A stretch of DNA of 5,297 nt. It comes from a virus. Its lineage: Duplodnaviria; Heunggongvirae; Uroviricota; Caudoviricetes. The DNA lies in the IMG/VR virus record IMGVR_UViG_2703719355_000016, positions 1 to 5,297 of that record; one strand, given 5' to 3'. The number at the start of each line of letters is the position of its first letter. The stretch's first letter is position 1. A model generated the notes under the pieces. That model had not been told where the DNA came from. It did no database searches and was given only the letters and a program-made list of their open reading frames with translations. Positions 1-5,297 of the stretch are shown here, one piece after another. The translations under genes were made by a program, and so were the position numbers.

Positions 1-3000
1 GGAATAACAATCTGCCGGTCAAACGGCTGATCGTCATAAACCCTGACGGTAATGGTCCCTGATGGCCACCGCTCCGGTGCCCGGGAGTCCCGCGGAAAAG
101 CCTTACCCACTGTTTTGACTATATCGCCTTCAATCTGGTTGGCTGACAGTTTCCCCTTAATCTGACAGTTCTCATTAATTGTGACATTGTTGAGCGTCCC
201 GGCGTTCGCATTCACACTGCCACTGATATCTGCATTTTTAGCGGTCAGCTTTCCGTCCGGTGTCAGGGAAAATGCCGGAGGATTACCGCCGCTGGTAATG
301 GTGGGAGCCGTCAGGCGTTTCAGGAACACGTCGTTCATGAATATCTGATCGCCCTGACCAACAAACATCGGCTTTGTGTTGCCATTCGCAGGATTAATCA
401 TCGCAATCCTGTCTGCCGCCAGCAGCACCTGACTCTGCATTCCTGCTGGCGTATTCTCAATACCGGCACCGATACCCGCAATATAAAGGCGTCCGTCCTT
501 CATCTGTTGCAGCTTCACAGCCCACATGCTGTTCAGATTATTATTTGTATCAACCTGAACCTTCTGTATCTGCTGGATCGCTGCACTCTGGTCTTCCAGT
601 TTCTTATTGACGGTCTGCGTGATTTCATTACTGACATCCGTGATGGACGTTCTGATTTCCGCCAGGTCAGGCGCAAGCTGACCGTTATCAATCTGAGTCC
701 ACAACTCCTGAGCCAGATGGGTTTTCCCTATCTCTCCTTTGAAAAAATCCAGATAGCCGGATGCATCATCACTCGGCTGGCCAACAGCCTCCACAAATGC
801 CGATTTGCCAACGGTGTTCACACTGCGGATATAAAAGTAATAATCATGGCCCGGTTTGATATTGATACTGGCGGCTATCCAGTACAGCCCCGTGCCAAGG
901 TAGCGGGCTGTGGTTTCAACCTGCCTGATATCGGTAATCCGCGTTTCCGAAAACCAGAACTCAAACTGTACCGTCGGGTCATACACCGCAAGACGCGGGA
1001 CCGCTGTTATCTGAAAATAGCCCGGTGTCAGCTCAATCTGTGACGGCGCTGCCGGTGCGGCAATCCGGAACGATACCGACGCCGGATCGCCCTGCTGCCC
1101 CCACGCATTTACCGCCCGGACTGTCAGCCTGTAGTTCCCCGGCGCCAGTTGCGTGAAGCGGTATGTGGTTTCCGTCGTCCGGGCCGTGCTGACCAGCCGC
1201 TCACTGCCGTCATCCGCGACCACGGTCAGGCGAAGCATAAAGCTCACGCCCTTCACCACCTTCGGCGTGTCCCATTTCGCCTGCGCCAGATACTGACCGT
1301 CAGCTGCGCTCACCTCCACCTTCAGGTGCTGCACTGCCGGAGGGATGACGCTGTTCAGGGTGCCTGACTGCGGCTCAAAGCTGGCCCCGTTATCCACGAT
1401 GGCTTCCTTTTCCGGTACGTGCTGCACCGCCGTGATGGCAAAGGTGCCGTCCGTGTTTTCCCGGATGGAGACACAGCGGAACAGGCGACGACGCAGTGAC
1501 GGCAGGGAGAGTCCCCATACACCGTATGTCTCCACACCATCAGGCAGGGTGCTGACCTGTATCCGGTCCGGCGCGGGGTGTGCAGTGATGGCCACGCTCA
1601 CCGGCTTACCGCTGCCGTTAATCAGGTTCACCGTGGCGGCACCTGTCTCCGGCAGGGTCACCTCACGGTCCAGTGTCAGGGTGCGGCTGGCGGCATCGAT
1701 GGACAGGATACGTCCGCCGGTCATGGTCCCGGCATAGTCGTTATCACAGATTTCAATAATGTCACCGGGTGTGTGACGCAGCCCCTGTGACCCGAGCGTG
1801 AAATCCACCGTCTGCGTTTCCAGCAGTCCGGTCTTTATCACCCACAGCCCGGCACGGTGGGCCTGACCGCGACTGGTGCAACCGAACGCATCCATCTTCA
1901 GCAGGTTGCGCCCGTAGCGCAGTATGGCTTCCGGGTCTTCCACCAGTTCCGTGGAGGTCTGCCAGCCGTTCTGCGGGTCGGTGTAATTCACCTCCACCGC
2001 CGTGTGGCGGTCCTTCAGGGCGCTGAAGCTGTAGCGAAACCCCACGCCGTTATCATCCACCACCACATCGCAGTTGGTGTACGGCCACACCACATCCGAC
2101 GGGCGGTCCTGAACGAACGTCAGCGTCTGGCCGTTCCATACCGGCATACAGCGCATCGCCGAGCAGAAATCACTGAGAACGTCCCACGCCTTACGCTGTT
2201 GTGACAGGTACGCATTAAAGGTCATCCGCGGCTCTGTGCCCCCGAAACCATCCGGGACCGTCTGGTCGCAGTACTGCCCGATGGCATACAGCGCCCACTT
2301 GTCAACATCCGCCGCCACCAGACGTTTTCCCATGCCGTAGCGCGGGTGAGTCAGCATGTCCCACAGGCACCAGGCCGGGTTGTTGCTGTATGCCGGTTTC
2401 AGGCTGCCGTCCCAGATGCCGCTGTACGTGCGTTTTTCCGGGTCATAGTTTGACGGTACCTGGATGATGCGACCGCGGATATGGTAGTTCACCGTCATCT
2501 GCTGACCGCCAAACTGCTCCGCATCCACCTGCAGCCCCACAATCGCCGTGTTCGGGTAGCACTGTTTCACATCGATGATTTCGGTGTATGACGACCAGAG
2601 CGTCTTATTCTGCAGCTGGTCCGAGGTGCTGTCCGCTGTCTCCCGGACCATCCGGATGTTAAAGGGCCGCTCAGGCAGATTCTCCAGAATCACCGACGCC
2701 AGGTACTGTGAGGTGGTCTTGCCGTTAATGGTGACATCCTTTTCCGTCACCCAGTTACCGTTACGCTGCAACTGAATCAGCAGTCGGACAGAAGAGGGAT
2801 TACGGTCGCCCTTTGAGGTGGTCTCCAACAGTGACTGCACCCCGAAGGTGACCCGCAGGCGGTCAATGTTCGCGGATGTAATGGTGCGCGTTACCGGCTT
2901 TGCCTTCGTCACTTCCACGCCCAGTCCGGTTTCAGCTCCGGAGGACTCAAAGCCTTCCGGTGGTGTCTGCTCCTGCTCCCCGGCGCGCCAGACCGCGGTC

Positions 3001-3191
3001 ACACCGTGTATCACAGGATTGCCGTCCGTGTCCGTCAGCGGGGTTTTGTTCACCAGGATACTCTGCAGCCCCTTCACCGGGCCTTCTATCGGTCCCTCAC
3101 CAATCGCATCAATCACACTCATCATCTGCGTGGATTTGAGATTATCCTTCGCCTCTCGAGGCGTGTGCGCCCTGCCGCCACCTTTGCCCAT
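1..3191 (-). CDS. J: Host-specificity / tail-tip central fibre protein J (lambda gpJ homologue). Partial: 1063 codons in the window, C-terminal ~70 codons (receptor-binding end) lie beyond coordinate 1.
   Basis: Reverse-complement translation from the ATG at 3191..3189 reads [38 protein letters not shown]... and stays open to coordinate 3 (3189 nt = 1063 codons). It is collinear with lambda gpJ as I recall it, including [27 protein letters not shown] and [19 protein letters not shown] near the C-terminal side. GAGAGGA lies 5 nt upstream of the ATG on the minus strand. The provided ORF track omits it only because the frame has no stop inside the window. Confidence 0.93.
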
Positions 3192-3196
3192 AATGT

Positions 3197-3203
3197 TCCT
3201 CTC
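3197..3203 (-). promoter_or_regulatory. Shine-Dalgarno sequence for J (GAGAGGA on the minus strand, 5-nt spacer to the ATG)
   Basis: Plus-strand tcctctc at 3197..3203 is GAGAGGA on the minus strand, immediately upstream of the J start codon at 3191..3189. Confidence 0.6.
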
Positions 3204-3315
3204 AATTGGTATTATTAATCGCAGTGATAGGATATTGCACAGCTATTGCGCGATATCATCAGAACGCTGTTTGTTACCCTGTAACCAGCAAGCTCAGTCT
3301 GTTAACGGAATTAAT
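3204..3315 (+). promoter_or_regulatory. Divergent intergenic region between the J start and sodC; presumed to hold the sodC promoter, position not resolved
   Basis: AT-rich 112-bp spacer between divergently oriented genes. Candidate hexamers are TTGCAC (3235..3240) and TATCAT (3254..3259), but they are only 13 nt apart, which is too short for a canonical sigma-70 promoter. I cannot place a -35/-10 pair confidently. Confidence 0.3.
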
Positions 3316-3320
3316 GAGGG
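3316..3320 (+). promoter_or_regulatory. Shine-Dalgarno sequence for sodC (GAGGG, 4-nt spacer to the ATG at 3325)
   Basis: Sequence ttaatGAGGGttttATG directly upstream of the sodC start. Confidence 0.65.
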
Positions 3321-3324
3321 TTTT

Positions 3325-3852
3325 ATGAAATGTAAAATCATTGCTGCCATTGCCATGCTGACAGCAGCATCATGCGGATACGCAGCAGAACAGGAAGTCC
3401 CAATGAACCTTGTCAGTGCTGACGGAAAAGAAGTCAGCATTGGAAAAATAACCATTCAGGAGACCCCCTACGGTCTGCTGTTCACACCAGCCCTTCACTC
3501 TCTGTCTGAAGGCATTCATGGTTTTCATGTGCACGAAAAAGGAAATTGCGCCCCGGCACTGAAAGACGGAAAACCGGTCGCAGCATTATCGGCTGGCGGT
3601 CACTTTGACCCGAAAAACACCGGCAAACATCTTGGCCCCTGGTCTCCGGATGGACACCTGGGCGACCTCCCTGCGCTGTTCGTGACGCATGACGGAAAAG
3701 CGAACTACCCGGTCCTGGCCCCGAGACTGAACTCATTAAAAGAGATTAAAGGGCGTTCTCTCATGCTTCATGCTGGCGGTGATAACCATCATGACCATCC
3801 GGAGCCCCTGGGCGGTGGTGGTGCGAGAATGGCCTGCGGCATCATTCAATAA
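3325..3852 (+). CDS. sodC: Periplasmic Cu,Zn superoxide dismutase (prophage-borne SodC), 175 aa with an N-terminal Sec signal peptide
   Basis: Translation [23 protein letters not shown]... has a signal-peptide-like N-terminus (basic n-region, hydrophobic core, GYA/AEQ cleavage context). Hallmark bacterial SodC motifs are present: [13 protein letters not shown] (copper His ligands plus disulfide Cys), GGHFDP, HLGDLP (zinc ligands) and [12 protein letters not shown] (catalytic Arg plus second disulfide Cys). The track ORF 2818..3852 is the same frame extended upstream; the ATG at 3325 is the first start with a ribosome-binding site. Stop TAA at 3850..3852. Confidence 0.93.
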
Positions 3853-3858
3853 TCAGTC

Positions 3859-3889
3859 AGGTAAGGGGCGGGCCCCTTACCTTTATTCC
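3859..3889 (+). terminator. Rho-independent terminator of sodC
   Basis: Perfect 10-bp GC-rich stem AGGTAAGGGG (3859..3868) / CCCCTTACCT (3873..3882), 4-nt loop CGGG, followed by TTATTCCT. It begins 7 nt after the sodC stop codon. Confidence 0.75.
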
Positions 3890-4418
3890 TCAGGACGATA
3901 AATCCTTTCTCCCTGAAAAGAACGGCACATCCTCCCTCTCTGAGTTAATGTTTTTGTCGTGACATAAGAATAATTCCTTACACTCAATCTTCGTAACGCT
4001 CCCGCAGTTCCTGTCCGTGAGTACTGCGGGATTTTTTCGCTTTTATGCCTGCCGCCCGATAACCACCACCTTCCCGTCACCGCCTTCATCACGGGTACTG
4101 ATGTCCTGGGAGATTCGCCGGGAGCCAACCAGCATTTCCCCGTAAGGCACCGGCATCGGGTTCCCCTGGGCAATCATGTTATCCAGCGACGAAAAGTACG
4201 TGTTCTGTTTACCGTTATCCGTTGCCCTGTATTCCGGTGTTTTTGGCTTCGGGGCCAGCATCTGTGCCACACCACCCAGTATCATGCTGGCACCCAGTGA
4301 AAACAGCATCGTGGTGGCAGAAAAACCACCGGCTGCCAGGGCTGAACCCCATAACGCCATTGATGCCCCGGCAGTGAAGAACGACCCCACGATGGCCGCC
4401 GCCCCCAGCACAATCTGC
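3872..4418. repeat. Direct repeat, copy A: 171-bp non-coding module plus the 3' 376 bp of gene I. Homology may continue to 4750, but its partner would lie beyond the window end.
   Basis: Aligns base-for-base with 4751..5297 at a constant offset of 879 bp and no indels. By-eye count: 15 mismatches in 547 bp (1 in the 171-bp non-coding part, 14 in the coding part). Confidence 0.95.
4000..4037 (+). terminator. Second plus-strand hairpin with T-tract (terminator-like) inside the 171-bp module, immediately 3' of the gene I stop
   Basis: 9-bp stem TCCCGCAGT (4000..4008) / ACTGCGGGA (4023..4031), 14-nt loop, then TTTTTT (4032..4037) and CGCTTTT. The T-tract is on the plus strand only; the minus strand has an A-run before the stem and no U-run after it. 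So it would stop plus-strand (sodC-direction or module-internal) transcription, not the tail operon. Confidence 0.5.
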
Positions 4419-4723
4419 AGTCCACCCTTTCCGGCCCCGGCCAGTCGCGGCACAATGTGGATGACCGTTCCCTCACCCAGCTGTTCGTGAAGACGGGCGT
4501 ACACCGCCTCCGGTGCCGTGTCATCACCGGCAATACGTATCTGGTACCAGCCTTCGTTCATCTGACGGCGAAAGCCCGGCATCTGCATCGACAGGGCGCG
4601 AATGGCTTCCGCTGCCGTGTTCACATACAGGCTGAGGCGGCGGCCAAATCGTTGTAAATCCCCGTGAAGGCAGATACGTGCCAGTGGCGGTGACGCCAGG
4701 CTGAATGCGTTCGTCGTTGCCAT
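4043..4723 (-). CDS. I: Tail assembly protein I (lambda gpI homologue), 226 aa
   Basis: Translation MATTNAFSLASPPLARICLHGDLQRFGRRLSLYVNTAAEAIRAL...NGKQNTYFSSLDNMIAQGNPMPVPYGEMLVGSRRISQDIS... is collinear with lambda gpI as recalled (ARICLYGDLQRFGRR, QNTYFSSLDNM, GA-rich hydrophobic segment). ATG at 4723..4721, stop TAA at 4045..4043. Confidence 0.9.
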   Translation of the reverse strand: MATTNAFSLASPPLARICLHGDLQRFGRRLSLYVNTAAEAIRALSMQMPGFRRQMNEGWYQIRIAGDDTAPEAVYARLHEQLGEGTVIHIVPRLAGAGKGGLQIVLGAAAIVGSFFTAGASMALWGSALAAGGFSATTMLFSLGASMILGGVAQMLAPKPKTPEYRATDNGKQNTYFSSLDNMIAQGNPMPVPYGEMLVGSRRISQDISTRDEGGDGKVVVIGRQA

Positions 4724-4734
4724 TTTTCGGAATA

Positions 4735-4742
4735 CCTCTCCC
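4735..4742 (-). promoter_or_regulatory. Possible Shine-Dalgarno sequence for gene I (GGGAGAGG on the minus strand, ~11-nt spacer)
   Basis: Plus-strand cctctccc at 4735..4742 is GGGAGAGG on the minus strand. The spacing to the ATG at 4723 is at the long end of the functional range. Confidence 0.4.
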
Positions 4743-4878
4743 GTTTACTAGCCCCTTACCTTTATTCCTCAGGACGATAAATCCTTTCTCCCTGAAAAGA
4801 ACGGCACATCCTCCCTCTCTGAGTTAATGTTTTTGTCGTGACATAAGAATAATTCCTTACACTCAATCTTCGTAACGC

Positions 4879-4916
4879 TCCCGCAGTTCCTGTCCGTGAG
4901 CACTGCGGGATTTTTT
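4879..4916 (+). terminator. Copy of the plus-strand hairpin plus T-tract within repeat copy B
   Basis: Same stem and T-tract as 4000..4037. The single non-coding mismatch between copies (4022 vs 4901, T to C) falls in the loop and preserves the stem. Confidence 0.45.
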
Positions 4917-4921
4917 CGCTT

Positions 4922-5297
4922 TTATGCCTGCCGCCCGATAACCACGACCTTTCCGCCCCCGCCTTCATCACGGGTACTGATGTCCTGGGAGATTCGCCGG
5001 GAGCCAACCAGCATTTCCCCGTAAGGCACCGGCATCGGGTTCCCCTGGGCAATCATGTTATCCAGCGAGGAAAAGTACGTGTTCTGTCTGCCGTTATCCG
5101 TTGCGCGGTAATCCGGTGTTTTTGCCTTCGGGGCCAGCATCTGGGCCACACCACCCAGAATCATGCTGGCCCCCAGTGAAAACAGCATCGTGGTGGCAGA
5201 AAAACCACCGGCTGCCAGGGCTGAACCCCATAACGCCATTGATGCCCCGGCAGTGAAGAACGACCCCACGATGGCCGCCGCCCCCAGCACAATCTGC
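4922..5297 (-). CDS. I: Second copy of tail assembly protein I. 5'-partial: the N-terminal part lies beyond the window end.
   Basis: In-frame translation ...LGAAAIVGSFFTAGASMALWGSALAAGGFSATTMLFSLGASMILGGVAQMLAPKAKTPDYRATDNGRQNTYFSSLDNMIAQGNPMPVPYGEMLVGSRRISQDISTRDEGGGGKVVVIGRQA* differs from the complete copy at 4 residues (KPK/KAK, E/D, K/R, D/G). Same stop context at 4922..4924. The frame is open to the window edge. Confidence 0.85.
   Translation of the reverse strand, partial: QIVLGAAAIVGSFFTAGASMALWGSALAAGGFSATTMLFSLGASMILGGVAQMLAPKAKTPDYRATDNGRQNTYFSSLDNMIAQGNPMPVPYGEMLVGSRRISQDISTRDEGGGGKVVVIGRQA

Follow-up and report, generated by a model that had tools for sequence, protein, structure and literature searches.

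Why should a lambdoid prophage carry the tail assembly gene I twice in tandem, and what can the differences between the two copies tell us about how they came to lie side by side? The question is raised by a stretch of E. coli prophage DNA of 5,297 bp, here called the window, which is the entire draft-assembly contig CYGN01000124.1 (GCA_001286505.1). This single 5.3-kb contig, from a short-read draft assembly, is the sole source of the tandem. An earlier note on the sequence had described two minus-strand I copies with one and the same spacer behind each, and had read them as an old duplication whose diverged copies are both maintained, mentioning a recombination scar between prophages as another possibility. 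We compared the window with itself, with related loci and with large sequence collections, and weighed the origin of the tandem against what is known of lambdoid prophages and of assembly errors.

The genes of the window are without exception ordinary members of known families, namely gpI, the K C40 peptidase, gpJ and prophage sodC-F, and the region is the familiar K-I-(sodC)-J tail-tip block of lambdoid prophages from EHEC/EPEC-like E. coli (Table 1). It resembles the K-I-J block of lambda and of EHEC/EPEC (Sp/CP-933-type) prophages in gene order and orientation, in the presence of Lambda_tail_I in I, in the overlap of K with the start of I and in having J next in line. It differs in that the window adds a spacer-I unit and a remnant of K, whereas all 83 reference loci have one I. 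The cargo gene likewise follows the sodC-F pattern of E. coli O157:H7 (sodC-F1/F2; PMC2569942), being a sodC of 175 codons that lies on the opposite strand between I and J and has its own terminator; unlike that pattern, copy 2 is accompanied only by the distal half of the terminator and a 65 bp tail, joined to K and not to sodC.

Table 1. Features of the window, with coordinates counted from its first base.
Feature	Position	Strand	Basis
J, tail tip / host-specificity, 5' part (N-terminal 1064 codons), cut by left contig end	1..3192	-	GpJ Pfam domains; gpJ annotation in NZ_CP148401.1 (L001)
sodC, Cu/Zn superoxide dismutase, prophage cargo, opposite orientation to tail genes	3325..3852	+	Pfam Sod_Cu, E = 3.9e-32; annotated in L001, L003 and L004
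sodC intrinsic-terminator hairpin, arms of 10-11 bp; repeat unit begins in its loop at 3871	3859..3882	+	Terminator scan; loop polymorphism
Spacer copy 1: sodC-cassette tail, 65 bp (3872-3936), and I-downstream part, ~106 bp (3937-4042)	3871..4042		Self-alignment; locus comparison
I copy 1, tail assembly, complete ORF of 226 codons	4043..4723	-	Pfam Lambda_tail_I
K remnant, last 42 codons and stop; overlaps the start of I, as K does in intact prophages	4621..4749	-	Identical to C-terminus of the L001 C40-family peptidase
Non-homologous junction, internal K position to sodC terminator loop	4749..4750		Comparison with intact prophages
Spacer copy 2; of the sodC terminator only the right arm, with the 'A' loop allele	4750..4921		Self-alignment; loop polymorphism
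I copy 2, 3' part only (C-terminal 125 codons, 376 bases, open frame), cut by right contig end	4922..5297	-	Alignment to copy 1

Copy 1 lies between the K remnant and sodC-J, in the position that I occupies between K (the C40 peptidase) and J in the reference loci, and it retains a start and a Shine-Dalgarno-like GGGAGAGG upstream. Lambda_tail_I (PF06805) is matched by its residues 15-97 (E=1.8e-16; 60.8 bits against a cutoff of 23.8); the fragment of copy 2 has no Pfam match, as the domain belongs to the missing N-terminal part. Annotations disagree on where I starts. The longest ORF, of 226 codons, overlaps K by 103 bases (4621-4723), a start that we take to be that of the lambda annotation, whereas PGAP places a 193-codon I in NZ_CP148401.1, with its start at an ATGA overlap with the K stop (8621-8624 of L001).

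Alignment of the window with itself confirmed the tandem and its shared spacers as a gap-free direct repeat with a period of 879 bp, in which 3871-4418 correspond to 4750-5297 over 548 bp with 16 differences. The repeat begins one base earlier than had been noted, with G at 3871 against A at 4750; we count this pair into the repeat because the sodC terminator loop has a known 'A' allele. In the comparison of 3872-4418 with 4751-5297, 15 bases mismatch, of which the spacer holds one (4022) and the 376 coding bases hold the other 14, at 4067, 4073, 4077, 4079, 4190, 4209, 4211, 4226, 4228, 4232, 4246, 4265, 4280 and 4292. On translation four of the coding differences change an amino acid (P/A, E/D, K/R and D/G), and the two proteins are 97% identical in the visible C-terminal part, differing at 4 of 124 residues. 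Alignment and translation thus reproduce the counts given before, and the description of the changes at 4067, 4073, 4077 and 4079 as one Asp/Gly replacement and three synonymous substitutions is correct codon by codon. Within the repeat there are exact-match runs of 150 bp and of at least 126 bp. The 879-bp unit is made up of 65 bp of sodC-cassette tail, ~106 bp of sequence downstream of I, I itself and 27 bp from the interior of K. The non-coding module of 171 bp that the earlier note saw behind each I is indeed shared by both copies, but it is not a single unit: some 106 bp of it (4042-3937) also occur in prophages that lack sodC, and the remaining 65 bp are part of the sodC cassette.

The origin of the differences was sought among 83 related loci, 80 from IMG/VR and three from complete genomes. 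The I gene is single in all 83 and duplicated in none, and the arrangement, for which related prophages were to be searched, does not recur. At 15 of the 16 sites at which the copies differ, these single-copy genes show both states; the exception is the non-coding 4022T, which is private to the window. The differences sit in two tight blocks, 4067-4079 and 4190-4292, and both haplotypes of each are found intact elsewhere. The first block has the type of copy 1 in 23 loci and that of copy 2 in 43; the second has the type of copy 1 in nine loci and that of copy 2 in six. Since both states pre-exist in single-copy genes, the divergence is older than the juxtaposition, and the claim of an old duplication whose copies drifted apart after it arose is not supported.

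The amount and the kind of divergence are also those of alleles. Of the 376 coding sites, 14 distinguish the two copies and a median of 25 distinguish pairs of single-copy alleles (5th-95th percentile, 6-38); pairs of co-resident prophages within the same IMG genomes (n=4) have 3-28 coding differences. The dN/dS ratio between the copies, which it had been proposed to compute, is 0.18 and indistinguishable from that between orthologous alleles, single-copy pairs having a median of 0.13 and an interquartile range of 0.08-0.18. Neither allele has a 100% match in complete genomes, the best being 98.8-98.9% identical. The excess of synonymous changes, previously taken as a sign that purifying selection keeps both copies, is inherited from two phage lineages in which I is an ordinary single-copy gene, and it is therefore silent on any selection after the copies were joined.

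The prophage that matches the window best belongs to E. coli Z1323CEC0019 (NZ_CP148401.1); its single I stands in the order K, I, sodC, J. It is 100% identical to the window over 1-4021 and 4602-4749, and the 32 differences between the two (5.5%) all fall within 4022-4601 (8022-8601 of L001), inside I. By this comparison the interval 4022-4601 is a sharply bounded recombination patch that covers almost exactly one gene, and the packing of all 32 differences into I thus points to frequent local recombination at this gene.

The I-J intergenic region (3193-4042) is a variable cargo slot among the same 83 loci. The full spacer and sodC are present in 15 loci and neither in 36, and in 32 only the I-proximal ~106 bp (4042-3937) are found, followed by a different insert of 130-230 bp. 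A terminator scan also detected a terminator-like hairpin, CCCGCAGT...ACTGCGGG, with a T-run, at 4001-4036 and 4880-4915 (plus strand). This hairpin adjoins the stop codon of I, is antisense to I and lies within the part of the spacer that is common to sodC-less prophages; it could keep transcripts from the cargo slot from entering the late tail operon in the antisense direction. The one private base of the window, the T at 4022, adjoins its 3' arm. Two further candidates in the 171-bp spacer were set aside. As a structured RNA, Rfam offers only a sub-threshold match to STnc400 (3816-3892, plus strand; E=0.16, 23 bits against a gathering threshold of 80), which extends over the 3' end of sodC and its terminator and probably reflects only the terminator. 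As for a small gene, there are 96-codon ORFs at 3883-4173 and 4762-5052, each overlapping I but in a different frame, and we took them to be spurious.

The point at which the window departs from intact prophages lies between 4749 and 4750. Intact prophages agree with the window in K as far as 4749 and go on with CAGTTG, where the window instead reads AGCCCCTTACC, the loop and right arm of the sodC terminator. The join shows no microhomology, contains no Ns and is gap-free. Upstream of copy 1 there is no intact K, only the 42-codon remnant that ends at the junction, and the remnant cannot be translated because two in-frame stops stand just upstream. The alleles of the sodC terminator loop are GCGGGC and GCGAGC, and GGGGCGAGCCCC is found in strains 90-3040 and 2012C-4227; among the 18 loci that carry the loop base (3870-3871), it is G in 13, C in three and A in two. 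Copy 1 has the 'G' allele and copy 2 the 'A' allele, a difference that speaks for different donors. On the other side of the join, the K base that follows 4749 in intact prophages is an invariant C in 82 of 82 loci, and position 4623 (4749 minus 126) is monomorphic.

Among 5,426 complete E. coli genomes and 50,697 phage records, a 121-bp probe gave no match across the junction, and the junction 32-mer had no match in IMG/VR, in GTDB species representatives or in JGI metagenomes. The 40-codon ORF that spans the junction was on no record searched, and no other contig searched carried a protein identical to that of copy 1 or to the fragment of copy 2.

The ends of the contig bear on how far this structure may be trusted. 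Copy 2 cannot be followed to the right, because the window is the complete contig. Its right end lies exactly 126 bp past the last difference between the copies, its final 127-mer is unique and its final 126-mer repeats 4293-4418; the end (5171-5297) fits a node boundary at k=127, of the kind expected where a unique path meets a repeat. That copy 2 stops here is therefore due to an assembly boundary and not to biology. The contig also contains 24 repeated 127-mers, so that it is not a simple unitig and must have passed through a repeat-resolution step, and its features suggest an assembler of the k-mer-node type at k=127 followed by such a step. Repeat-resolution steps in assembly are error-prone. 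A literature search returned no paper on assembly GCA_001286505.1 or its assembly method.

The explanation that we favour, with moderate confidence, is an illegitimate join between two sodC-carrying lambdoid prophages, which brought two I alleles head to tail. The donors would be two sodC-carrying lineages with one I allele each, here X for the allele of copy 1 and Y for that of copy 2. A single homology-independent join would connect an internal position of K (4749) in one prophage to the sodC terminator loop (4750) of the other, most simply through an illegitimate crossover between co-resident or tandemly integrated prophages or through a deletion between tandem prophages. The product would be a hybrid prophage, longer by 879 bases and of the order K - I(Y) - spacer / K remnant - I(X) - spacer - sodC - J. 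The same outcome would result if the duplication arose in place and gene conversion from co-resident prophages came later. The account infers a junction that exists in the DNA, a full-length copy 2 preceded upstream by K, and transcription of both copies as part of the late operon.

The starting condition for such an event is common, since two sodC prophages in one genome are well known; prophages with sodC-F often occur two per genome (PMC2569942). A breakpoint in a hairpin loop, a truncated gene remnant and a lack of microhomology would be the marks that illegitimate recombination leaves. In these three respects the junction is like known cases of illegitimate recombination in lambdoid phages; it is unlike them in that the event in the window is itself only deduced, and neither an enzyme nor an intermediate can be named from sequence. 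Furthermore, the left side of the junction lies at no graph boundary that would be expected, given the invariance of 4623 and of the K base after 4749, and reads containing the junction therefore seem to have been required. Against a real join stand its origin in one short-read contig, its absence everywhere else and the lack of a second I in any of the 83 loci; moreover, with its right side at a polymorphic base and the contig end at a k=127 node, the region is clearly a repeat tangle for an assembler. The recombination scar between co-resident lambdoid prophages that the earlier note had mentioned is thus the best fit to the pre-existing alleles and the non-homologous join, a fit that holds only if the junction is real. 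If so, the tandem is likeliest a young, neutral and unstable scar, because homologous recombination should readily remove a repeat whose exact runs measure 150 bp and at least 126 bp.

The main alternative, possible though in our view less likely, is that the tandem is false and that an assembler, scaffolder or gap-closer set the Y segment after X, taking the two from separate sodC prophages. Much of what has been described above is as this would have it: the whole window is a short-read draft contig, not a simple unitig given its repeated 127-mers; its end fits k=127; the Y piece starts exactly at a polymorphic site (4750); the junction is missing from all the collections searched; and a second I is missing from all 83 loci. 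In addition, the setting of diverged alleles in tandem is a kind of error documented for assemblies (Kelley & Salzberg 2010, PMC2864568; Ko et al. 2022, PMC9516828), and the window is like those false duplications in its adjacent alleles of ~97% identity and in a contig end at a k-mer boundary. It is unlike them in that theirs concern diploid haplotypes and usually show gaps or shared overlaps, whereas the join in the window is gap-free and made of non-homologous bases. Graph assemblers do not normally create joins that have neither shared bases nor Ns, and no concrete step of a pipeline that would yield one was identified. One form of this idea, that the junction is made of two k=127 nodes placed one behind the other, was discarded for its left side, where 4749 falls at no expected node boundary; 4623 and the next K base are invariant in 82-83 loci.

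An illegitimate join and an assembly error both leave the copies as alleles of two phages. The reading from which the earlier note set out, that of an old tandem duplication of I which diverged in place and was kept as a pair of functional paralogues, perhaps as two tail-tip assembly chaperones, is very unlikely. Both visible frames are open, copy 1 keeps its start and GGGAGAGG, and the dN/dS of 0.18 between the copies is low. However, the same ratio separates orthologous alleles, 15 of the 16 differences are single-copy polymorphisms in blocks found intact elsewhere and so did not arise after duplication, and the arrangement appears neither in the 83 loci nor in any of the collections searched. 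A tandem repeat of 879 bp that has such exact runs should, moreover, be lost by homologous recombination long before reaching 3% divergence, as would be expected from established RecA biology. It is likewise very unlikely that the junction is real, the hybrid prophage viable and two gpI variants, four C-terminal residues apart and made from one late operon, retained for a broader or more stable tail-tip assembly with a mosaic J or K, and nothing suggests a new function for a gpI pair.

The tandem I, known from one contig, is thus either a structural variant private to it or an error, and at most another mosaic rearrangement of the lambdoid kind. It leaves knowledge of gpI and of tail assembly unchanged. 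What it offers is, in the first place, a caution: a low dN/dS between near-identical neighbouring copies may reflect alleles from different phages, or their placement by an assembler, and in genomes rich in related prophages it is not evidence for a maintained pair of paralogues. If the junction is real, the window would provide a small, datable case of homology-independent recombination between co-resident lambdoid prophages, with its breakpoint in the loop of a terminator hairpin, and would be of modest interest for prophage mosaicism in EHEC/EPEC-like strains.
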